Sequence record: NC_005859.1
Origin: Escherichia phage T5
Length of the DNA: 64,000 nucleotides
Direction: 5' to 3' (one strand)
In this document: positions 4,684-37,301 of the stretch, in pieces
How positions within the stretch are numbered: the stretch's first letter is position 1
How the letters are laid out: every line of letters begins with the position of its first letter
Program-made: the position numbers and the translations under genes
The notes under the pieces: generated by a model
What the model saw: the letters and a program-made list of their open reading frames with translations, nothing else
What the model was told of the DNA's origin: nothing
Database searches by the model: none

Positions 4684-4974
4684 GGGTACATCTTAAAGCC
4701 TATCGGCTAGGGTGTCAAACTATTTTTTGCAGTTTTTTATGATTTTCTTTCAAGTCAATCATAATGTTTCGCCAGATCATTTCCAGACCTTGCTGGCGGC
4801 CTTTCTTGTACTGCCTAAATCGATATTTTACCGATTGCTGGGCTATTGTCAACAATTTTTTAGTAGTACCATCTAATTTTTTAGCTGGTTTACCAGTGAT
4901 CAATAAAGTTTGTTTCATATCGTCGATTCCTTATAATATATAAGTTTACCGCCGATAGACTTTAAGATGTACCC
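4684..4974. repeat. 24-bp inverted repeat pair flanking a small basic ORF
   Basis: GGGTACATCTTAAAGCCTATCGGC (4684-4707) and its reverse complement (4951-4974), 23/24 identity. Confidence 0.7.
4715..4918 (-). CDS. small basic protein
   Basis: 67 aa Lys/Arg-rich ORF lying between a 24-bp inverted repeat pair. Confidence 0.35.
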   Translation of the reverse strand: MKQTLLITGKPAKKLDGTTKKLLTIAQQSVKYRFRQYKKGRQQGLEMIWRNIMIDLKENHKKLQKIV

Positions 4975-27262: not shown

Positions 27263-27574
27263 TCACAGATCGGGGTGCTTATCTTCTAAACAGTCCGAGC
27301 TAATATATTCTCCGGATCCTACGAAGCCATCAAATTCATCATTTGAAATATCCGTAATCATTGCTTCCATTTTCCTAATCTCCGAGGTTTTCATCCCTGC
27401 TTTACTATTCTTAAAGTGTTTGCGAGGATTCCCGCACATCCAACAAGAACAGATACAAGGAGTAGTAGTGATAATACCTAACCGTTTAGGGCCTTCATGT
27501 GGGAAGACTGTCCAGTATTTCTTGCGGTTGTTCTTCACACGTTGCCGGTGATGACGTCTTAATGCTCGATCCAC
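27263..27574 (-). CDS. zinc-finger-like protein
   Basis: 103 aa; CICSCWMCGNPRKH cluster. Confidence 0.45.
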   Translation of the reverse strand: MDRALRRHHRQRVKNNRKKYWTVFPHEGPKRLGIITTTPCICSCWMCGNPRKHFKNSKAGMKTSEIRKMEAMITDISNDEFDGFVGSGEYISSDCLEDKHPDL

Positions 27575-27655
27575 ACATTTCTCCTAAAACTTGGGAGATA
27601 AATGGAGTTTGCTCGACTACCTTACGTAGTTCGTAGAAACTGTATCCAAGCCCCA

Positions 27656-28099
27656 TTACATCGCCTGAGTAAATGTACGACTAATAACGTCGTTCTGCTG
27701 TTCACGCGTCAGTGCGTTAAAACGCACAGCGTACCCTGAAACACGGATAGTTAATTGAGGGTATTTTTCAGGATGTTTCTGTGCATCCAAAAGCTGATCA
27801 CGACTTAACACATTGACATTTAGGTGTTGACCACCTTCAATTTGAGGGGCGACTTCCACTTTGACTTCACGAAAGGATTCGGGGTCAAAATGAGGTGTAA
27901 TACCTTCTAGATCTTCAACTAGAACTTTTTGTTTAAGTTCACCATCTTTAGAATATAATTGAATAATCTGATTATTATGAACAATATTAATTACGCCAGA
28001 TTTAAGATTTTGATACGCTTTCATTAGATCTCCTGGTTGGTAGTTAGTAGTGGATTTGAACCACTGTAGTCGCTCCGTATGAAGGAGGTGCATAACCAC
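27656..28099 (-). CDS. grcA: autonomous glycyl-radical cofactor (GrcA/YfiD-like)
   Basis: C-terminal ~70 aa near-identical in pattern to GrcA: GGQHLNVNV ... [19 protein letters not shown] ... RTFT. Confidence 0.85.
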
Positions 28100-28209
28100 T
28101 CTGCCAACTAACTATTATGTTTTACTAGGCTAAGTAAGTATTCTTTGTACTCCTTAGACCAACTAGCTTTTTTAAACTTTCCTGGACGCATAGTCTTAAT
28201 TCCTAGATT

Positions 28210-28286
28210 TGGTACTCCGGGAGGGATTTAAACCCCCGATCTCTCGGTTATCAGCCGAGTGCTTTAGATCGCTAAGCTACCGAAGT
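28210..28286 (-). tRNA. tRNA-Ile (anticodon GAU)
   Basis: hand-folded cloverleaf, CCA encoded; anticodon loop CTGATAA; T-arm GGGGG/TTTAAAT/CCCTC. Confidence 0.7.
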
Positions 28287-28301
28287 ATTAAAATATTTAC
28301 A

Positions 28302-28592
28302 TCACACACTGTCTAAGTAAGAAGTATAATGGAACTTAGTTTCTCCAGCCTTATCTACTTCTACCTCAGTTCGAGGTACTTGACGAACCACACCATAAAT
28401 CATCTTATATCGGATGCCTCTAGCTGGTTCATGATCTTTTGGAAATACTTGTTTGACCGTTACTACTTTATACCCTTCACGCGGTGTTAACACAACTACT
28501 TGATCACCCTCTTTGATTTTCCAAGAAGATGGAAATTCATAGGTGTATCTTTGGCCACCAGTTTGGAATACTACAGAAAGATAACGTTTCAT
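28302..28592 (-). CDS. hypothetical protein
   Basis: 96-aa ORF between tRNAs, downstream of canonical promoter. Confidence 0.5.
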   Translation of the reverse strand: MKRYLSVVFQTGGQRYTYEFPSSWKIKEGDQVVVLTPREGYKVVTVKQVFPKDHEPARGIRYKMIYGVVRQVPRTEVEVDKAGETKFHYTSYLDSV

Positions 28593-28622
28593 TTGGTTTC
28601 CCTCTCATTAACTTATATAAAT

Positions 28623-28651
28623 ATTATAGCAATAAATAAGAGAGAAAGCAA
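28623..28651 (-). promoter_or_regulatory. T5-type early promoter
   Basis: minus-strand TTGCTT-N17-TATAAT between tRNA-Thr and ORF 28302..28592. Confidence 0.7.
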
Positions 28652-28666
28652 ATGAATTTTTAAGTT

Positions 28667-28741
28667 TGGTGCTCCCACTAGGAATCGAACCCGGTTCAGA
28701 TGCTTACAAGGCAACTGCATCACCAACAATGCTTTAGGAGC
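28667..28741 (-). tRNA. tRNA-Thr (anticodon UGU)
   Basis: CCA encoded; anticodon loop CTTGTAA; one mismatch in each of anticodon and T stems. Confidence 0.6.
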
Positions 28742-28908
28742 GATGATCCCGTTATTTCAACGGGATTTCTTTTTCAAATACAGGGGATTTATCTGACATT
28801 ACTGTCATTGCCAACTGCTGAAGAAACTCGAAAGTTAGCTTTAAACGTTCTTCGCCTAATTCAATCTCAACGTATTTCTTTTGTTTGTCAACCTTTAATT
28901 TTAGGTTA

Positions 28909-29160
28909 TCAGCCATTAGAGAGTACAGTACTGGTAGTTGGCAATACTACAGATGAAGCAACAGTGTTTAAATGCTTTCTCCAGTCTAGGTTAAATTGTT
29001 TTCGAAACTCTTCATAAGGTTCTTCTGGATAAAAGCTAAAACCTCCTTTCTCATCATTCAGGATAACAGAGCCGTCAGTTTGTTCATATGCTCGATATGT
29101 TTCTCCAATAATGATAACTCGCTTATCAGTACTTTTATTACGAAACTCAAAAACGTGCAT
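28909..29160 (-). CDS. hypothetical protein
   Basis: 83-aa ORF. Confidence 0.45.
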   Translation of the reverse strand: MHVFEFRNKSTDKRVIIIGETYRAYEQTDGSVILNDEKGGFSFYPEEPYEEFRKQFNLDWRKHLNTVASSVVLPTTSTVLSNG

Positions 29161-29176
29161 AGTGTTTCCTTAAAGT

Positions 29177-29252
29177 TGGAGCGGCTAGAGGGAATCGAAC
29201 CCTACTCAGCGAGGCTTGGAAGGCCTGCGACACAACCCGTGTGCTTAACCGC
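29177..29252 (-). tRNA. tRNA-Gly (anticodon UCC)
   Basis: CCA encoded; anticodon loop CTTCCAA; acceptor stem 7 bp with one GU. Confidence 0.65.
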
Positions 29253-29259
29253 GATTATT

Positions 29260-29337
29260 TGGCAGGGGATATTGGATTTGAACCAATGATCTCGACTTCA
29301 AAGGCCGAAGCTTTAGGCCAAGCTAAGCTAATCCCCA
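29260..29337 (-). tRNA. tRNA-Gln (anticodon UUG)
   Basis: CCA encoded; anticodon loop CTTTGAA; perfect T-stem. Confidence 0.6.
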
Positions 29338-29343
29338 ATTGTT

Positions 29344-29419
29344 TGGCAGAAGGTAGTGGGTTCGAACCACGATCAGTGGTTTCAGAGATCCCAGCCTTAA
29401 CCGACTTGGCTAACCTTCT
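29344..29419 (-). tRNA. tRNA, anticodon arm atypical (possibly Gln-CUG)
   Basis: perfect acceptor stem AGAAGGT/ACCTTCT, D-stem AGCC/GGCT, T-loop TTCGAAC, CCA encoded; only 3/5 pairs in best anticodon stem. Confidence 0.4.
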
Positions 29420-29978
29420 TCTTAATACTTTTTGGATCTTTACCTGTTAAGGATTTATAACGTTTACGTAGTCCGTTATCAGATAATCCTAACTCTTTTG
29501 ATGCTTTAACCCATGAATAGTTTATTACCCAATATTCTATTTGCTCTGCTGTAATATCAGGGCTACTCTTAGGTTTACAATCAAAACAAGTTTTAGATGA
29601 AGAATTTATTTGTTTATTACAGTAAGGGCATTTATTACCACCTATTGTATGTCCTCTTTCAACTGTAGTTTTTATTCTATGATCTTGCTTGGTCATGACT
29701 ACTAGATTATCTAAGGAAAAATTCAATTTATTCCTATCTTTGTGATCCACTTCTAGCTCAGATTCTAGTGAAGGTAAATCTTTAAATACTCTAGCTAGTA
29801 ATCTATGTAATACGATAGAGACATTCTTGCCCTGTTCATAGAATGTTACAAACGGATATCCTGCACTACCTAAATGATGTGTGAGTAATTTATTACTCTT
29901 GGTAGAGTAAACTTCTCCATATGGAGAGATTAAGTATTCGGGATATTCCGGAATTACTTTGAAATTTTCTAATTTCAT
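29397..29978 (-). CDS. HNH homing endonuclease
   Basis: 193 aa; HNH core EVDHKDRNKLNFSLDNLVVMTKQDH plus C-terminal Zn-ribbon/HTH tail; 3' end overlaps adjacent tRNA. Confidence 0.8.
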   Translation of the reverse strand: MKLENFKVIPEYPEYLISPYGEVYSTKSNKLLTHHLGSAGYPFVTFYEQGKNVSIVLHRLLARVFKDLPSLESELEVDHKDRNKLNFSLDNLVVMTKQDHRIKTTVERGHTIGGNKCPYCNKQINSSSKTCFDCKPKSSPDITAEQIEYWVINYSWVKASKELGLSDNGLRKRYKSLTGKDPKSIKKKVSQVG

Positions 29979-29979
29979 C

Positions 29980-30180
29980 TTATTCTACAGGAACCGTGGC
30001 GATTGGCTCAGGTTCTTCAAGGCGCTTACCTTCATGATCTACTCGAATGACTCCGCATCCTTCGCAAACCACAACTGCACCATAACCTTCTTTGACTTCG
30101 GCTTCTGTAATCAGACCAGATAAGTCACCAGTATCTCTGCCCCACATATCAATGGAGCATTGTTTGCAGAAATCAGCCAT
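29980..30180 (-). CDS. zinc-ribbon small protein
   Basis: 66 aa; CxxC...CxxC. Confidence 0.45.
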   Translation of the reverse strand: MADFCKQCSIDMWGRDTGDLSGLITEAEVKEGYGAVVVCEGCGVIRVDHEGKRLEEPEPIATVPVE

Positions 30181-30205
30181 ATTTTATTTCCTATTTAAGT
30201 TAATT

Positions 30206-30282
30206 TGGGGTGGCTAGTGGAATTCGAATCCACATAGGCCTGATTCACAATCAGGATCATTAACCAATTATGATATAGCCAC
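30206..30282 (-). tRNA. tRNA-His (anticodon GUG)
   Basis: CCA encoded; discriminator C; anticodon loop TTGTGAA; perfect anticodon and T stems. Confidence 0.75.
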
Positions 30283-30511
30283 AATTGAAAACTCGCAGGG
30301 TTAGCGAAACCATCCTCAATTAGCATGTTCTAGAATACTAATCAAGTTATCTCCTATTGCACGCAGCTCAAGACGAGTACGAATTTTCAATTGTGGCGGC
30401 TCTCAGAAACTCTTCTATTCTAGCCCCAGAAGCTTACCCCCGAACGCATGTCGGGAAAGTCTTTCCAAGCGCATCAAATAGCACCGTTACACTTTGAGCC
30501 ATTGATATATC

Positions 30512-30596
30512 AAGGAACAGAAGGAGTTGAACCTTCACGAGATAGACCATTTATCTCAACCGCTTTTAAGGTATATTTCTAGGAGCGGATGTTCCT
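30512..30596 (-). ncRNA. tRNA-like structured RNA (non-canonical)
   Basis: perfect acceptor-like helix AGGAACA/TGTTCCT and T-arm GAAGG/TTCAACT/CCTTC, but internal region folds as two hairpins instead of D and anticodon arms; no CCA. Confidence 0.3.
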
Positions 30597-30844
30597 AGTA
30601 AACCTATTCGGCAGTCCCGTCTACCAATTCCGGCATATTCCAAGAATTTTTTATAAACCAGCAGAAGCCTCATTTAAAGCATCAACAATAGCTTCACGCT
30701 GGGTCATTCCATACCCAGTGGAGTCTAGGTGAGGCAAATAGGCTGCCCATCCATTATCTGTTTCATGAAGGCATGCTTTAAATTTTTTACCGTCCTTCAT
30801 TGTTACAGTAACTGTTTTGCTCATAAGGATTCCTTATAGTTAAT

Positions 30845-30934
30845 TGGAGGAAGGTAATGGAGTCGAACCATCACCGTATCACTACAGCGGGCTAGTTTTC
30901 AAGACTAGTTGCGTACCACTACGCCCTACCTTCC
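30845..30934 (-). tRNA. tRNA-Ser (anticodon UGA), class II
   Basis: 90 nt with long variable arm; anticodon stem-loop ACTAG/CTTGAAA/CTAGT; CCA encoded. Confidence 0.65.
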
Positions 30935-30941
30935 ATTTGTT

Positions 30942-31035
30942 TGGCGGAAAAGATGGGAGTTGAACCCATAAGGCAATATTGCTATTACTCAACCGATTTC
31001 CAATCGGGTTTAGTCGCCAGTCTATTTGCTTTTCC
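30942..31035 (-). tRNA. tRNA-Ser (anticodon GGA), class II
   Basis: ~94 nt; anticodon loop TTGGAAA; CCA encoded; 5' end overlaps stop of HNH gene 31022..31606. Confidence 0.55.
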
Positions 31036-31606
31036 GTTGTTCTGTTAATACTTTTGGGCTTAATCCAGTTAGTTTAGTATACCTCCTGCGCAAAGTGGAC
31101 TCTGATACTTCTAACTCTTTAGCTGCCTTAACCCACCCCATTAATAAAACCTTTTCAGTTATGTCGTCTAAAGACAATTCTGGTTTTATCAACCTTCCTG
31201 TAGGTTTTGGCTTACAATTTGTACATGTTACAGATCTCTGAAGCATTAGACTCCCACATAGGGGGCAAGGTACTCTACTGTCAGACCACCCATTATCTTT
31301 ATTAGTTTTCCTCTGATGTTCTATTTTTGATAGGACTTGAAGATTATCTTTAGATAGATTCAGTCTATCTCTATCCTTATGATCTACCTCTAATTCAGGG
31401 TCAAATAGATTATATAAGTCCCCAAATACATGAGAAATAATTCGGTGTATAAGTACAGAGGTTTGTTTACCATTTATCTGTAATTTTACAGCAGGGTATC
31501 CATCAACTATATATCTTGATAAAACTTTATTAGTAAATGTAGAGAACACATCCCCCGCCTCATTTACTAAATACCCTGGTGCATCTTTTATTGGTACAAA
31601 CTGCAT
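31022..31606 (-). CDS. HNH homing endonuclease
   Basis: 194 aa; paralog of 29397..29978 (same HNH core and C-terminal tail); 3' end overlaps tRNA-Ser. Confidence 0.8.
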   Translation of the reverse strand: MQFVPIKDAPGYLVNEAGDVFSTFTNKVLSRYIVDGYPAVKLQINGKQTSVLIHRIISHVFGDLYNLFDPELEVDHKDRDRLNLSKDNLQVLSKIEHQRKTNKDNGWSDSRVPCPLCGSLMLQRSVTCTNCKPKPTGRLIKPELSLDDITEKVLLMGWVKAAKELEVSESTLRRRYTKLTGLSPKVLTEQRKSK

Positions 31607-31623
31607 ACATAAATCCTATGAGT

Positions 31624-31708
31624 TGGTGGGGCTAGGGAGACTCGAACTCCCACGCATTTAAGCTACGGAATCTAAGGCCGTATTGTCTACCAGTTCCAGC
31701 ATAGCCCC
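31624..31708 (-). tRNA. tRNA-Leu (anticodon UAG), class II
   Basis: 85 nt; perfect T-stem; anticodon loop CTTAGAT; CCA encoded. Confidence 0.6.
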
Positions 31709-31713
31709 GAATT

Positions 31714-31789
31714 TGGTGGACAAAGAGGGACTCGAACCCTCCCTACCAGATTGCAAGTCTGGTGTGCTCCCGCTGACACTATTCGCCCA
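31714..31789 (-). tRNA. tRNA-Ala (anticodon UGC)
   Basis: anticodon loop CTTGCAA with perfect stem; acceptor stem carries the G3:U70 Ala identity pair; CCA encoded. Confidence 0.75.
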
Positions 31790-32026
31790 AATTATTTAGT
31801 TTACTAAGGCTATTAGCTCGGCGTAACTACAGCACCTTCGCTTCAAGCGGAAGGAACCGCGTCATCTCGCAAACCCAATACACTATTCAGTTGCCGCTGA
31901 ATCTAGTGGACTAATCTAGAACTTCTCCCAAATCGTAGGGATCGTGCTTTTTGGCAGCCAGTCCTAGGTCGAGCTAATACCTTAGTGAACTATGATGGGG
32001 ATTTCTCCTCATCAATTTATATAAAT

Positions 32027-32055
32027 ATTATAACAAGAAATTAAGCATTAAGCAA
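32027..32055 (-). promoter_or_regulatory. T5-type early promoter
   Basis: minus-strand TTGCTT-N17-TATAAT; no ORF for ~230 nt downstream (31800-32020). Confidence 0.65.
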
Positions 32056-32080
32056 CTGCGTTTTTGAAATTTCTTGGACT

Positions 32081-32154
32081 TGGTACTCGGTGATAGAATC
32101 GAACTATCACAACCGCCGTGTAAAGGCGGGGTTCTCCCATTATACTAACCGAGC
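32081..32154 (-). tRNA. tRNA-Val (anticodon UAC)
   Basis: anticodon stem-loop CCGCC/TTTACAC/GGCGG perfect; CCA encoded. Confidence 0.7.
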
Positions 32155-32161
32155 AAAAATT

Positions 32162-32239
32162 TGGTGGGTTGCACAGGACTCGAACCTGTAACCTATGGTT
32201 TAAAAGACCAGTGCTCTAAACCAGTTGAGCTAGCAACCC
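32162..32239 (-). tRNA. tRNA-Lys (anticodon UUU)
   Basis: anticodon loop CTTTTAA; perfect acceptor and T stems; CCA encoded. Confidence 0.65.
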
Positions 32240-32427
32240 TTAGTAACCATTATATACTTCTTTAATAGTATGGACTTTCAAATAAAGGTGATTAGTACTA
32301 AACTCCGCCATTACTTCTTTTTCATTTTTTCCATAATGTGCAAGTAAGGATTTTGATGTATTCTTACCTAAACGTTTGTCACTTACTACTAATCGAAATA
32401 CTTTCATTTCGAAATCCTCTATTAAAA

Positions 32428-32505
32428 TGGAAGCGGGTGCAGGAATCGAACCTACCTCTTTCTAGCTTATGAGACTAGCGATCTCTACCAGAGATCTAAC
32501 CCGCA
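32428..32505 (-). tRNA. tRNA-Met (anticodon CAU)
   Basis: anticodon loop CTCATAA; 1:72 position unpaired (U/U); CCA encoded. Confidence 0.6.
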
Positions 32506-32511
32506 ATTGTT

Positions 32512-32588
32512 TGGTCTCCAATGAAGGACTCGAACCTTCAACCCCACCGCCCCAAACGGTGTACTCTAGCCAATTGAGCTAATCGGAG
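32512..32588 (-). tRNA. tRNA-Pro (anticodon UGG)
   Basis: anticodon stem-loop CACCG/TTTGGGG/CGGTG perfect; G37; CCA encoded. Confidence 0.7.
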
Positions 32589-32783
32589 AAAATTATTTCT
32601 TCAGCCACAACATGCTTAATCCTAGCATTGTAAAGCCTGTACTTAATCCTATTACCTTTTCTATCATAGAAAAGTTATCTATGTTAAATCCTACTATTAC
32701 TATAGGGATAACCCAAGTACACATGAATACTGATGCAATTTTATACTTCACTTAGCTTTCCTTCTCTTCACTTTATAAGATAT

Positions 32784-32812
32784 ATTATACAGAGAATTAA
32801 GCATAATAGCAA
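32784..32812 (-). promoter_or_regulatory. T5-type early promoter
   Basis: minus-strand TTGCTA-N17-TATAAT. Confidence 0.65.
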
Positions 32813-33204
32813 CTACATTTTTCATAAATTTACTTATTGTGTAGGCCACCTGGAGGCTACCAACCCCACGGCTGACAAAGAAGTTTGCGAGACTTCTCTT
32901 AAAAGCCAGAATAGACCCGCCGATCTATCGGAACCTACATAATAAGTAAACTTTATAGTGTCATCCTAGACAGGATTCGAACCTGCTATCACTTGTGCGG
33001 ACTTACGAGAACCATTCTTTCACTCGAATCGAACGAGCTTCTGCCCTCGCCAAGTTGGTTTCCCCATCAACCACGCTAGAATGTTAGATTGTTTTCAGTG
33101 CAAGAGTCCGAGTCTTGGACACGACCGCTTCGCAAGTACATAGGCAGCTTATCATGAGTCAGCACTTCCGAATTGCTAGCTCCGTGTTCTGCACTGAAAT
33201 TTTA

Positions 33205-33552
33205 TTAGTTTAACCGTAAAGTATTATCTACTTCACCATTAATTGTTCGGCACTCCTCTGGGATTGCCGGAGTGGCCTTGTATTCCCACCACTCAGCACC
33301 ATCATATTCCCCACGTTCTAGCCAAGTTCCGTCGGCAAACCATACATTACCATAAAGTAATTGTCCACCGTATCCAGAATCATATTCAAAGTCTAGGTTA
33401 TCAAGAAAATCCTCAATATCTTCTTCTGTATAACCTAAAGGTAATACCCAAACTTTTTTATCCCCATAATACCCGAATTCTATTTTAATACACTTAACTT
33501 CAGAATTAGTATTTTTTAAGGCAAGTAACAGCTCTTCTTTGGCATTACGCAT
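33205..33552 (-). CDS. hypothetical acidic protein
   Basis: ORF-track start 33639 lies inside tRNA-Asp; internal ATG at 33552 (MRNAKE) used. Confidence 0.45.
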   Translation of the reverse strand: MRNAKEELLLALKNTNSEVKCIKIEFGYYGDKKVWVLPLGYTEEDIEDFLDNLDFEYDSGYGGQLLYGNVWFADGTWLERGEYDGAEWWEYKATPAIPEECRTINGEVDNTLRLN

Positions 33553-33577
33553 AGTATATTCCCATACTGAATTAATT

Positions 33578-33654
33578 TGGCGCGACCGATGGGATTTGAA
33601 CCCACATTCTCTCCCGTGACAGGGGAGTACCATTACCAAGCCAGCCCCGGTCGC
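33578..33654 (-). tRNA. tRNA-Asp (anticodon GUC)
   Basis: anticodon stem-loop CTCCC/CTGTCAC/GGGAG perfect; perfect acceptor stem; CCA encoded. Confidence 0.75.
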
Positions 33655-33663
33655 ATAATTTAT

Positions 33664-33849
33664 TTACTCAGCTTTGAGTTTTTCAATAGCTGCATTAAGT
33701 TCTTTAAGAAACTCTTTTCGTACATTAAGACGATTGAGACTTACTAGTATATCATGTTTAAGCTCTTCGATGTATTTCTTCTCAACTTCAATATTGTTGA
33801 TAGTGCTATCACGATGAACTTCTAGCTGCGCAATCACATTCTTGGACAT
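33664..33849 (-). CDS. small coiled-coil protein
   Basis: 61-aa ORF. Confidence 0.4.
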   Translation of the reverse strand: MSKNVIAQLEVHRDSTINNIEVEKKYIEELKHDILVSLNRLNVRKEFLKELNAAIEKLKAE

Positions 33850-33951
33850 GCTTGTTTCCTCAGTTATTAATGAAAATGGTATCTGTGGCTGAATTCGATG
33901 TCAGCAATGATAGCTGGTTGGCTACCGGTTTACTTAACTCTACACAGAATT

Positions 33952-34029
33952 TGGCGGTTCCTGCTGGATTCGAACCAGCAACCCTCAACTTAACAAGATG
34001 CCGCTCTAACCAATTAGAGCTAAGGAACC
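33952..34029 (-). tRNA. tRNA-Asn (anticodon GUU)
   Basis: canonical loop TTGTTAA but anticodon stem has two mismatches; perfect acceptor and T stems; CCA encoded. Confidence 0.5.
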
Positions 34030-34524
34030 ATATAAGTCAGAACTAGAGTTAATACGTTCTAGATATTTACTAAGATCTCTAGAATTTATACTAAACCACT
34101 CATGTTCTTTTAAATCTTTGAAATACTGGTGAATTAGTTTTTCACCTTTTCGTTTGTCAAACCAAAAAGACCAATGCTCTAACTTATAATCCCTATAAGG
34201 GGAATAAGTCTGATATTGAGCTAATCTCTCCTTTGGATTTTGACTCATACCTATTTTATACTGATTTTTCCATGCAGGATTACTAATACAGTATACAAAA
34301 CCTTCAGAAATAGGAAGTTTATTTTCCTGCTTAAACTTTATAAAGGAAAGTGCAGCAAGTTTTCTCGAATACATAGTATTTGTATTCTTTTTGGTATTAC
34401 CATTGGTTCCTGAAAGATTTATATATACTTCCATAAATCTTTGGATTAGTTCTGCGGTTATATAGAAGGGCTCATTAGTAACAACGCCTTTCTTTACCAA
34501 ACTATCAAAAACTTTTGTATGCAC
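34006..34524 (-). CDS. T5orf172-domain protein (GIY-YIG-related)
   Basis: 172 aa; YCISNPAW..YKIGMS..P..R pattern recognised from memory as the T5orf172 domain; 3' end overlaps tRNA-Asn. Confidence 0.7.
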   Translation of the reverse strand: MHTKVFDSLVKKGVVTNEPFYITAELIQRFMEVYINLSGTNGNTKKNTNTMYSRKLAALSFIKFKQENKLPISEGFVYCISNPAWKNQYKIGMSQNPKERLAQYQTYSPYRDYKLEHWSFWFDKRKGEKLIHQYFKDLKEHEWFSINSRDLSKYLERINSSSDLYGSLALIG

Positions 34525-34545
34525 TACTTCTTTCCTTTAGTAATT

Positions 34546-34621
34546 TGGACGACCGCATGAGATTTGAACTCACATAAAAAGGATTTGCAATCCTTCGCCT
34601 AAGCCATTCAGCCAACGGTCG
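34546..34621 (-). tRNA. tRNA-Cys (anticodon GCA)
   Basis: anticodon stem-loop AAGGA/TTGCAAA/TCCTT perfect; CCA encoded. Confidence 0.7.
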
Positions 34622-34784
34622 ATTTATTATCTTTCATAATATGTAGCTACATGGTCGGAACCACAATTACCACACACTTTCTTACCTGTTTTAGAGTAGT
34701 AATCTTGATCACCACATTCATAACAGATACATAATTCTTTTTCTTGTTCTGTCATATTGCTTCTCCAGTTCAATTTATGTAATT

Positions 34785-34813
34785 ATTATATAGAACTTTT
34801 GGAAACTAAGCAA
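34785..34813 (-). promoter_or_regulatory. T5-type early promoter
   Basis: minus-strand TTGCTT-N17-TATAAT. Confidence 0.65.
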
Positions 34814-35093
34814 CTACATTTTTTAAGAATTTGATGCCTTTCTTTTTCTTCTTATATTTCCACGTTAATGGATTCTGTCGATTATAAACGCTTGAGATCT
34901 TTGTCTCGTCAAAGTTCTTCAATATCATGTAATCACAGGATAATTGTTCTAGTGGAATGTGGTCACCGCCAAAAGCGTATATATAAGGCCGTTGACTAAC
35001 ACGATAATGATAGACTTTGTTAATTCTACGTTTCAGCGATTTATCCGCACAGTAAATAAAGAAGTTTTCAGGATGCATCAGCATCTCCTTCAA
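34806..35093 (-). CDS. hypothetical protein
   Basis: 95-aa ORF. Confidence 0.45.
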   Translation of the reverse strand: MKEMLMHPENFFIYCADKSLKRRINKVYHYRVSQRPYIYAFGGDHIPLEQLSCDYMILKNFDETKISSVYNRQNPLTWKYKKKKKGIKFLKNVVA

Positions 35094-35095
35094 TT

Positions 35096-35170
35096 TGGTG
35101 CACCCTGTTCGAATTGAACGAACCTCTCAAGCTCTTCAGGCAAGCGCTAATCCATCTCAGCTAAAGGTGC
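35096..35170 (-). tRNA. tRNA-Phe (anticodon GAA)
   Basis: perfect T-stem and D-stem; anticodon loop CTGAAGA; anticodon stem has two U:U mismatches; CCA encoded. Confidence 0.5.
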
Positions 35171-35256
35171 AAATTTTGGCAGAGGTAAAGGTATTCGAAA
35201 CCTTTTCATGGGTTTTGGAGGCCCATTTGCAACCTATGCGTACCCCAATTGTTAAT

Positions 35257-35333
35257 TGGCGTCCTGTGTGGGGATCGAACCCGCAAACCCTACCTTGAAA
35301 GGGTAGTGACTTTACCAGTTTGTCTAACAGGAC
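35257..35333 (-). tRNA. tRNA-Glu (anticodon UUC)
   Basis: anticodon stem-loop CTACC/CTTTCAA/GGTAG perfect; perfect acceptor stem; CCA encoded. Confidence 0.75.
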
Positions 35334-35339
35334 TTAAAT

Positions 35340-35427
35340 TGGTAGGGGAGGATGGAGTCGAACCACCCGAGTCGCAATGACAACTAATTTACAGTCAGCT
35401 CTGCTACCACTTACAGAATACTCCCCC
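35340..35427 (-). tRNA. tRNA-Tyr (anticodon GUA), class II
   Basis: 88 nt; anticodon arm GCTGA/CTGTAAA/TTAGT; long variable arm; CCA encoded. Confidence 0.55.
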
Positions 35428-35551
35428 ATATTTGAATGAAAAGTAAGTCGGTTAAACTCAAGGTGGAATATTTCAGGATTTCCTGACTTTACCCCTCAAA
35501 GTAACTCGCTTAGTTACTTCTCATTCAGATATGTTTCCAAATTAGATAACT

Positions 35552-35580
35552 ATTATACCAAGTTTTAAGGCACTGAGCAA
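35552..35580 (-). promoter_or_regulatory. sigma70 promoter
   Basis: minus-strand TTGCTC-N17-TATAAT upstream of tRNA-Tyr/Glu/Phe group. Confidence 0.55.
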
Positions 35581-35616
35581 GTCAAATTTTGAAGAACTTG
35601 CTCAGTGCTGTATTAG

Positions 35617-35892
35617 TTAGTCGAACTTAGGAGTGACAGATAAGGAGAACGGAAGTTCAAAAACTTCTTCACCCTCATTACTAACAGTAACTACACGACC
35701 TTTAAGTTCAGACATTGAAATATCAATATCAGCTTTTGCATCTGGAGCCATGCCAGCTTCAACACATTTAGCTTTAACTTCCGGCAAGAGTTCTACATCG
35801 TAGAAATAAAGCCATTCAATCTCACCTTCCCAGCCTTCCCAGGATTTACAGATTGCACTTTCAATACCAGTTGCTACAACACTATTTTGCAT
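35617..35892 (-). CDS. hypothetical protein
   Basis: 91-aa ORF downstream of canonical promoter. Confidence 0.45.
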   Translation of the reverse strand: MQNSVVATGIESAICKSWEGWEGEIEWLYFYDVELLPEVKAKCVEAGMAPDAKADIDISMSELKGRVVTVSNEGEEVFELPFSLSVTPKFD

Positions 35893-35982
35893 TCGTTAAC
35901 TCCTTCATCAATTTATACAACTATTATATCAGAAATTTAAAGCAAAAGGCAAGTACATTTTTAAAAATTCTATTCGGAGGAG

Positions 35983-36189
35983 CTAAACTCCAGATTCTTC
36001 TGCCAAGTCTAGGCTAATAAGAGTTATAGCCATAATTGCTGCACCGTGTTCTTTTTCTCCGGTGTTTTTAGCAGAGTCTATAATATCCTTAATCTGTTCG
36101 TAATAACTTTTTACTTCTTGTTCAATGCCTGCCTCGGCTATCATGCCTTTAGCCATGAATCGTTGCATGGTAATTTCAGGATTAGCCAT
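35983..36189 (-). CDS. hypothetical protein
   Basis: 68-aa ORF. Confidence 0.4.
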   Translation of the reverse strand: MANPEITMQRFMAKGMIAEAGIEQEVKSYYEQIKDIIDSAKNTGEKEHGAAIMAITLISLDLAEESGV

Positions 36190-36378
36190 GTTGTTTCTCC
36201 AGTTTCATTTTTAATAGTTTACAGATGAAATCAACGTCTTCATCCGTGCCTAAGTCTCTATCCTCAAGGGTCGCCTTGAAGTTTTTCGTCAATTCCATGA
36301 GGATGACTTCCCTAGAACGACGTGTTGGGGGCGGAGGAGGTCTATACATCTTAATTCCTTAATTTGGTAGGAACTATA

Positions 36379-37062
36379 TCATCTATTTTTCTTAATACTT
36401 TTAGGATCTTTCCCCGTCAGGGACTTATACCTTTTCCTTAATCCAGTATCAGACAATCCTAGTTCTTTAGAGGCACGAATCCAGGAATATTTAGATACCC
36501 AGTACTCTATTTGCTCCACAGTAATATCTGGATTTATAGTTATCCCTTTAGGAGTACATGATTTACAGTGTGTTGCTCTTGAGCTAATTTCGCAGTGACA
36601 AATAGCACACGTATTTACAGTCCTTTCTGTATACCTGCCAATATTTTTGCCTGCATGAGTAGGCGTTAGTGCATGGCAATTTGGACATAGGAGGGCTAAG
36701 TTATCCCATTCATTATTATAGTGGTTTCCATCCTTGTGTTCGAGTTCTAAAGGAATTGGTTTGTCTAACCAACTTTCTAAGCCGCAACTCTCACACTTAT
36801 GTGGTTTTAGCCCCTCGTTAAGAATTTTATTCTTTAGTTTATAGGAAGAAATAGGGCTGCCGTTATATAAATATTCTGTTGCAGACTTATATTTATTATC
36901 ATACTGCCTATTCGTAGGAATAACTACTATTCCTAGTTTTCCTAAATATGCTTCCAAAGTGTTCGAGGAGCAGGATAGCATTCTTGCTATCTCTGCCTTA
37001 GATTTTCCCTGAGCTATCCACTGAGCTATTTCTTCCTTTCTATCTAGTATATCAGTTCTCAT
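36379..37062 (-). CDS. HNH endonuclease with N-terminal HTH
   Basis: 227 aa; LELEHKDGNHYNNEWDNLALLCPNCH HNH core, extra Cys clusters, C-terminal tail shared with other HNH paralogs. Confidence 0.75.
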   Translation of the reverse strand: MRTDILDRKEEIAQWIAQGKSKAEIARMLSCSSNTLEAYLGKLGIVVIPTNRQYDNKYKSATEYLYNGSPISSYKLKNKILNEGLKPHKCESCGLESWLDKPIPLELEHKDGNHYNNEWDNLALLCPNCHALTPTHAGKNIGRYTERTVNTCAICHCEISSRATHCKSCTPKGITINPDITVEQIEYWVSKYSWIRASKELGLSDTGLRKRYKSLTGKDPKSIKKNR

Positions 37063-37085
37063 AATTTATGACTTTCTACTTAAGT

Positions 37086-37163
37086 TGGTGGCTCCCCGAG
37101 GATTCGAACCTACGTACCTTCCAGTTATGAGCTGGGTGCTCATACCATATGAGCTTGAGAACC
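37086..37163 (-). tRNA. tRNA-Met (anticodon CAU), second copy
   Basis: anticodon loop CTCATAA; D-stem GCTC/GAGC; acceptor stem with two GU pairs; weak T-stem; CCA encoded. Confidence 0.55.
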
Positions 37164-37169
37164 AGAATT

Positions 37170-37258
37170 TGGCGGAAGAAGTGGGAATCGAACCCACAAG
37201 GCTATATTTCAAACCGACAGATTAGCAATCTGCTGCAATACCGTTATGCTATTCTTCC
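37170..37258 (-). tRNA. tRNA-Ser (anticodon GCU), class II
   Basis: 89 nt; perfect acceptor and T stems; anticodon loop TTGCTAA; CCA encoded. Confidence 0.65.
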
Positions 37259-37272
37259 GAATTTATAAATAT

Positions 37273-37301
37273 ATTATATTAGAAATTTAGCTTCATAGCA
37301 A
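37273..37301 (-). promoter_or_regulatory. T5-type early promoter
   Basis: minus-strand TTGCTA-N17-TATAAT upstream of tRNA-Ser/Met pair. Confidence 0.65.

Follow-up and report, generated by a model that had tools for sequence, protein, structure and literature searches.

A probable complete set of CAU tRNAs for AUG and AUA in phage T5: initiator, isoleucine and elongator methionine genes

Which amino acid and which codon does a transfer RNA (tRNA) with the anticodon CAU serve when its gene lies in a phage genome? The question is raised by two genes at 32428-32505 and 37086-37163 in a stretch of 64,000 nucleotides (nt) from Escherichia phage T5 (sequence record NC_005859.1; the whole stretch is called the window here). 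An earlier note on this DNA had suggested that one of the two might be an initiator-like tRNA, or that one might be a lysidine-modified isoleucine tRNA rather than a methionine tRNA. Identity determinants and the annotation of phage BF23 indicate that both suggestions are right, one for each gene: the first encodes an initiator, formylmethionine-specific tRNA (tRNA-fMet), and the second most likely a lysidine-type isoleucine tRNA (tRNA-Ile2). A third CAU gene, found with ARAGORN at 28038-28113, outside the span covered by the note, is needed to interpret the other two. We put the probability that T5 encodes its own complete tRNA set for AUG and AUA, made up of fMet, Ile2 and elongator Met, at about 85%.

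Both genes belong to the known early-region tRNA cluster of T5, in which all tRNA genes lie on the minus strand. Between 28038 and 41504, ARAGORN predicts 23 tRNA genes and Rfam 21 at the gathering score of its tRNA model (29 bits; E-values were computed over the whole window). The first gene is called tRNA-Met(cat) by ARAGORN and matches the Rfam model with 43.6 bits (E=5.9e-6). The second is found by Rfam (38.2 bits, E=1.7e-4) and missed by ARAGORN because of an extra nucleotide in its T stem. Two CAU genes are indeed present where the earlier note had placed them. Each is 78 nt long, encodes its CCA end and carries CAU at positions 34-36 in the loop CUCAUAA. Their bodies differ, as had also been noted: the acceptor stems read UGCGGGU/ACCCGCU in the first and GGUUCUC/GGGAGCC in the second, the D stems GAUC/GAUC and GCUC/GAGC, and 51 of 81 aligned positions are identical. 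When each gene is aligned with its relatives, 93.8% of cells are paired in either family, with compensatory changes at 13 pairs (initiator) and 12 pairs (Ile2), and none of 500 shuffles reaches the observed percentage of paired cells or the observed covariation score. Because of this covariation, both genes are real, selected cloverleaves. That the second is not a gene at all, having no ARAGORN call, was considered and rejected on the Rfam match and the family covariation.

The names given to these genes differ among database records. In the T5 record AY587007.1, all three CAU genes are labelled tRNA-Met (window coordinates are those of AY587007.1 plus 79; megablast of 31500-38000 against that record gives a 100% match over the full length). 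In the tRNA-region record of BF23 (AJ604530.1), the three homologs are named tRNAM, tRNAfM (‘initiator tRNA-fMet’) and tRNAI2. This annotation is detailed, with promoters, stable RNAs and suppressor tests, and it states that each CAU gene is identical to its T5 counterpart. Sequence comparison confirms the identity for all three, and tRNAfM and tRNAI2 also stand in the same order as in T5 (Pro-fMet, Ser-Ile2), with no difference between the two phages. Earlier papers and annotations on T5 and BF23 had already described the biology of the initiator and Ile2 genes; a paper by Chen et al. 1975, cited in PMC4810235, speaks in its title of Met- and fMet-specific T5 tRNAs. Our own assignments draw on sequence features, conservation, covariation and identity with BF23, and from these we infer formylation, lysidine formation and use on the ribosome.

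For the gene at 32428-32505, the unpaired 1:72 position reported in the earlier note is confirmed: in the covariance-model alignment, every pair but U1·U72 is standard. The pairs G2:C71, C3:G70, G4:C69, G5:C68 and A11:U24 are all as in E. coli metY. Among bacterial fMet genes, A11:T24 is found in 100% and separates fMet from the other two CAU types, and the acceptor bases C1, G2, C3, G70, C71 and A72 are nearly invariant (Silva 2006, PMC1635315), with C1·A72 in 98.5% of initiators (PMC1635315). The identity set of the formyltransferase consists of an unpaired 1:72, which is the major element, together with A73, G2-C71, C3-G70 and G4-C69 (PMC9976931). Elongators have a pyrimidine at 11 and a purine at 24; this pair, a paired 1:72 and U4:A69 with A5:U68 are traits of elongator tRNA-Met, and the gene has none of the three. 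Besides BF23, two independent T5-like records, LR597659.1 and that of BASEL phage DaisyDussoix, label it fMet, in agreement with the initiator-like alternative.

The anticodon stem is less regular, with A29:U41, G30:C40 and U31·G39. The earlier note had proposed to look for the three consecutive G:C pairs of initiators (29:41, 30:40 and 31:39), and this check fails, since only G30:C40 is present. Several points weigh against an initiator: one of the three canonical pairs is kept, while the bacterial fMet consensus for this stem is R29G30G31/Y39C40Y41 (PMC1635315); MetRS and the formyltransferase use A73 as discriminator, where this gene has U73; U14 stands in place of the usual A; and the combination au/GC/ug is not among the E. 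coli mutants described (PMC5389676). Some tRNA-fMet mutants of E. coli with altered flanking pairs grow poorly in some conditions, and some G30 contexts are non-functional (PMC5389676). On the other side, only the middle pair, G30:C40, is essential to sustain E. coli, and the flanking G:C pairs add fitness (Shetty 2017, PMC5389676), so the minimal anticodon-stem requirement is present in the T5 gene.

With E. coli metY and metZWV, the T5 initiator has in common the anticodon and its loop CUCAUAA, the unpaired 1:72, the four acceptor pairs from 2:71 to 5:68, A11:U24, G30:C40 and the T-stem wobble U50·G64. It differs in having U1·U72 for C1·A72, A29:U41 and U31·G39 for G:C, U73 for A73, U12:A23 for G12:C23 and U14 for A14, and overall identity is ~59%. 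A BLAST search with it against 5,426 E. coli genomes gives no match, so it was not recently copied from a host gene. The variant initiators of Mycoplasma and rhizobia and the engineered E. coli mutants (Shetty et al. 2017) have, like T5, lost the flanking G:C pairs and kept G30:C40; whereas these keep purine 31 and pyrimidine 39, the T5 lineage has the two reversed, as U31·G39.

Relatives of the T5 initiator found by BLAST occur in Erwinia phage KEY, Proteus phage PM135, Klebsiella phage VAC51 and Vibrio phage KVP40, and all of them have G30:C40 and U31·G39. Only this BLAST-derived set counts here, as the invariance of G30, U31, G39 and C40 in pattern-derived sets is imposed by the search pattern. 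In an alignment of 16 family sequences, metY included, 1:72 is unpaired in 14 and U:A in two, G2:C71 and C3:G70 are invariant, and G4:C69 and A11:U24 are each found in 15; a T5-like variant with U1·C72 likewise lacks a pair there. The discriminator is U73 in T5, Epseptimavirus and VAC51 and A73 in KEY, PM135 and KVP40. The KVP40 gene, a tRNA(CAU) of T5-initiator type with U1·U72, A11:U24 and U31·G39, is unannotated; it lies at 177260-177335 of NC_005083.2, between tRNA-Pseudo-2 and tRNA-Ile-1.

The T5 initiator would be charged with methionine by the host MetRS, and its U1·U72 end together with G2:C71, C3:G70 and G4:C69 should permit the host formyltransferase to formylate it. Being unpaired, this end should also disfavour use of the tRNA in elongation, and G30:C40 would act as the minimal anticodon-stem signal for use in the P site.

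The third CAU gene, at 28038-28113, is an elongator tRNA-Met. All three elongator traits are found in it, with paired A1:U72, C11:G24 and, as in E. coli metT, U4:A69, A5:U68 and U29:A41. The gene thus carries both U4-A69 and A5-U68, which count as MetRS determinants (PMC9976931), so the elongator role is already filled. Its anticodon loop is UUCAUAC, with C38 instead of the A38 used by IleRS. This loop, with U32 and C38 where E. coli has CUCAUAA, is kept in T5, Erwinia phage KEY, Klebsiella phage VAC51 and Vequintavirinae phage DP.

The remaining CAU gene, at 37086-37163, is most likely a tRNA-Ile2. The bacterial IleRS determinant set includes C29:G41, U12:A23, A37, A38 and A73 (PMC9976931), and all of these are found in the gene. 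Its homolog is tRNAI2 in BF23, and a Sugarlandvirus ortholog that shares its GGTTCTC acceptor stem bears the annotation tRNA-Ile, so that the suggestion of a lysidine-type tRNA holds for this gene. Elongator Met traits are only partly present: 1:72 is paired and C11:G24 and U4:A69 are found, but C5:G68 takes the place of A5:U68. Whole-sequence identity, at 0.64 to ileX and 0.65 to metT, does not separate Ile2 from Met, and the assignment is drawn from determinant positions and family context instead.

The family context comes from a scan of viral contigs, which gives 30 distinct members of 78 nt. C29:G41 is found in all 30, at columns that the search pattern left free, and 27:43 is unpaired in 28. 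Many members have C4:G69 with C5:G68, and some have G3:C70, which marks Ile genes (Silva et al., PMC1635315). The ortholog from Erwinia phage KEY and T4 tRNA-Ile have the same anticodon arm (GUCCC-CUCAUAA-GGGAA), down to the G27·A43 mismatch. The CAU tRNAs of T4-like phages are regarded as lysidine-type Ile tRNAs (PMC1524935), and one T4-like vibriophage has two tRNA(CAU)s, on one of which lysidine at position 34 (k2C34) was found experimentally (PMC13191261). With T4 tRNA-Ile and E. coli ileX, T5 Ile2 has in common CAU, the loop CUCAUAA, C29:G41, U12:A23 and A73; it differs in U3·G70 and U4:A69, against C3:G70 and C4:G69, and in the extra, bulged nucleotide of the T stem. Identity is ~64% to ileX and ~55% to T4 tRNA-Ile.

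Throughout the Ile2 family this T stem is asymmetric, its 5' strand being one nucleotide longer than its 3' strand (six against five). With one nucleotide bulged in the 5' strand, 99.3% of cells are paired, and there are compensatory changes at both outer pairs; a conventional, unbulged stem pairs 69.3% and was rejected. In T5 the outer pair is C:G with the bulge, whereas the conventional model produces a G·G clash. The bulge is conserved in Demerecviridae, in Vequintavirinae and in many viral contigs of ~47 kb. A large group of Ile2-type sequences with the acceptor GGGCCGG on such contigs was also considered as ileZ of Stx prophages, which was rejected as megablast against E. coli genomes gives no match.

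Host TilS would convert C34 of the T5 tRNA-Ile2 to lysidine, and the modified tRNA would then be charged by IleRS and read AUA. Together with the tRNA-Ile(GAU) gene of the same cluster, the three CAU genes give T5 the four tRNAs that the AUN codon box requires. AUA is used 8.7 times per 1000 codons in the 37 long open reading frames (ORFs) of the window, or for 14% of Ile codons. This is roughly twice the E. coli level, and the usage fits a codon-supply role.

Among the other explanations, the one that survives best is still doubtful. It holds that both genes serve mainly in anti-defence, as nuclease-resistant replacements for host tRNA-fMet and tRNA-Ile2 depleted by host tRNases. The analogy is with the T5 tRNA-Lys, -Thr and -Asn, which counter the AriB nuclease of PARIS, tRNA-Lys by way of two anticodon-stem substitutions (PMC12409363), and enteric VapC toxins are known to cleave initiator tRNA in the anticodon loop (PMC5175351). 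The T5 and host initiators do differ in the anticodon stem (G39-C40-U41 and C39-C40-C41, respectively), and the T5-type initiator lineage is found only in phage-type tRNA arrays. However, the differences could also be due to sequence drift, the genome being AT-rich, and an anti-defence function would add to the decoding roles rather than replace them.

A less probable view takes the gene at 37086-37163 for a pseudogene in decay or for one more elongator tRNA-Met; host TilS would reject its tRNA, so that C34 would stay unmodified and AUG would be read. The points that weigh against Ile2 meet here. The two pairs of E. coli tRNA-Ile2, C4:G69 and C5:G68, are both reported to be required by E. coli TilS (PMC1635315), whereas the T5 gene has a Met-like U4:A69 with C5:G68. 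The BASEL record, which distinguishes fMet, nevertheless labels this gene of Tequintavirus tRNA-Met, as do most other records. The Rfam score is low, ARAGORN rejects the gene, the T stem is irregular and 27:43 is a C·A mismatch. Because of U4:A69 and the label in an isotype-aware record, the initiator assignment is the more certain of the two. Decay, though, is hard to reconcile with the strong purifying and compensatory evolution of the family, in which the irregular T stem is a conserved bulge with covariation. The invariant C29:G41 and the A38 of this gene are IleRS determinants, and the Met-type U4:A69, A5:U68 and U29:A41 sit together in a different T5 gene, that at 28038-28113. Family members with C4:G69 and C5:G68, the occurrence of the Ile-marking G3:C70 in some members, and the anticodon arm that the KEY ortholog has in common with T4 tRNA-Ile also speak for Ile2, as do the Ile annotations in the BF23 and phage Sealy records. 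The least probable explanation, that the gene at 32428-32505 is rejected from the P site in vivo for want of two of the three G:C pairs and is an odd elongator Met or has a role outside translation, can appeal to the reduced stem and U73 but has to contend with the unpaired 1:72 kept in 14 of 16 family members (the two exceptions being a weak U:A), and we know of no reason for an elongator to keep such an end. A11:U24 and the fMet acceptor pairs are likewise conserved, T5 already has a conventional elongator Met, and the Chen et al. 1975 title names an fMet-specific T5 tRNA.

The genes discussed here, their neighbours and two promoter-like sites are collected in Table 1.

Table 1. CAU tRNA genes of the T5 window, adjacent tRNA genes and promoter-like sites
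Feature	Coordinates	Strand	Basis and remarks
Elongator tRNA-Met, third CAU gene	28038..28113	-	ARAGORN; Rfam 51.5 bits; identity to BF23 tRNAM
tRNA-Ile(GAU), reads AUY	28210..28286	-	ARAGORN; Rfam 65.5 bits; BF23 tRNAI1
tRNA-fMet, phage-type initiator, CAU	32428..32505	-	ARAGORN; Rfam; determinants; identity to BF23 tRNAfM; family covariation
tRNA-Pro(UGG)	32512..32588	-	ARAGORN; 6 nt upstream of the initiator gene
Sigma-70 promoter-like site	32784..32812	-	10/12 matches; ~195 nt upstream of the Pro-fMet pair
Most likely tRNA-Ile2, CAU, presumed lysidine-34, would read AUA	37086..37163	-	Rfam; identity to BF23 tRNAI2; determinants; family covariation
tRNA-Ser(GCU)	37170..37258	-	ARAGORN; 6 nt upstream of the Ile2 gene
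Sigma-70 promoter-like site, TTGCTA-17-TATAAT	37273..37301	-	10/12 consensus match only; just upstream of Ser-Ile2

The initiator and Ile2 genes each follow another tRNA gene at the same short distance, and this spacing suggests that Pro-fMet and Ser-Ile2 are probable dimeric precursors. The Pro-fMet pair is also found in BF23, T5_ev212 and PRF-SP13, and the Ser-Ile2 pair in BF23, Erwinia phage KEY and PRF-SP13. Once the offset of +79 is applied, the promoter-like site farther upstream of Pro-fMet coincides with T5P17, an early promoter annotated in AY587007.1. For the one next to Ser-Ile2, the syntenic site in BF23, just upstream of a tRNA-Ser(AGC), is annotated as promoter P15b. Directly downstream of the Ile2 gene is an ORF at 36379-37062 on the minus strand, which the T5 record labels ‘LuxR family’; its BF23 counterpart is hegA, the H-N-H homing-type endonuclease F-TflIV, and several HNH endonuclease genes are interspersed among the T5 tRNA genes.

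Some further features of the cluster were seen along the way. The D arms of the initiator (32482-32496) and Ile2 (37141-37154) genes, both on the minus strand, could form hairpins of 6-7 bp, where 4 bp is usual, by pairing GAUCUC with GAGAUC and GCUCAU with AUGAGC, respectively; the two extra pairs are possible in 14-15 of the 16 initiator family sequences and barely vary. A tRNA-Gly(UCC) at 29177-29252 (minus strand), identical to BF23 tRNAG1 and with an unusual D arm, is missed by ARAGORN and by Rfam at the gathering score. At 41431-41504 (minus strand), ARAGORN predicts a tRNA-Ser with the odd anticodon ACU, and AY587007.1 has a pseudo-tRNA. The syntenic region of BF23, which comes right after tRNA-Arg, bears the annotation ‘RNAX, stable RNA with unknown functions’, and a tRNA-Sec is annotated at the same relative position in Salmonella phage PRF-SP13.

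How far the T5 type of initiator extends was judged from two scans. The first covered one genome per species from 100,044 bacterial and archaeal species, with a pattern composed of the acceptor/D-arm start and the core GUCUCAUAAGC. It has only four matches, all on contigs of metagenome-assembled genomes (MAGs) with 14-33 tRNA genes in a few kilobases. As dense tRNA arrays are typical of tRNA-rich phages, these are probably phage contigs binned into MAGs; the bins are labelled Bacteroidia, Ca. Solibacter, Ca. Pacearchaeota (an archaeal label) and Flavobacterium. The lineage as found so far thus consists of members from Demerecviridae, Vibrio phage KVP40, uncultivated viral contigs and the four MAG contigs. 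A second scan, of viral sequences, returned many more initiator-like tRNAs that start with U1, with U·U, U·C or U:A at 1:72 and with G30-G31/C39-C40, so a U1 start seems to be a common phage trait.

These assignments bear on how such phages are annotated. Many T5-like records, AY587007.1 among them, label all three CAU genes tRNA-Met, and the Ile2 gene escapes ARAGORN, so that the capacity of such phages for AUA decoding and for initiation is routinely under-reported. As a separate matter, the tRNA features of AY587007.1 are shifted by 68 nt from the real genes; for example, within its stretch 27500-42000, numbered from the start of that stretch, a tRNA-Met is annotated at 4782-4859 and found by ARAGORN at 4850-4927. 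Since the coding sequence (CDS) coordinates are correct, this shift creates false overlaps between tRNA and CDS features.

A bolder idea, which we hold only tentatively and think unlikely, is that the T5 initiator lineage, with U1·U72 and U31·G39, is restricted to phage-type tRNA arrays and that its stem may have been selected against nucleases that cut the host initiator, VapC for example, so that the phage would have initiator tRNA of its own to draw on; the T-stem bulge of Ile2 could likewise be a feature of evasion or recognition. If the stem does resist initiator-cleaving toxins, the use of phage tRNAs as anti-defence tools would extend to translation initiation.

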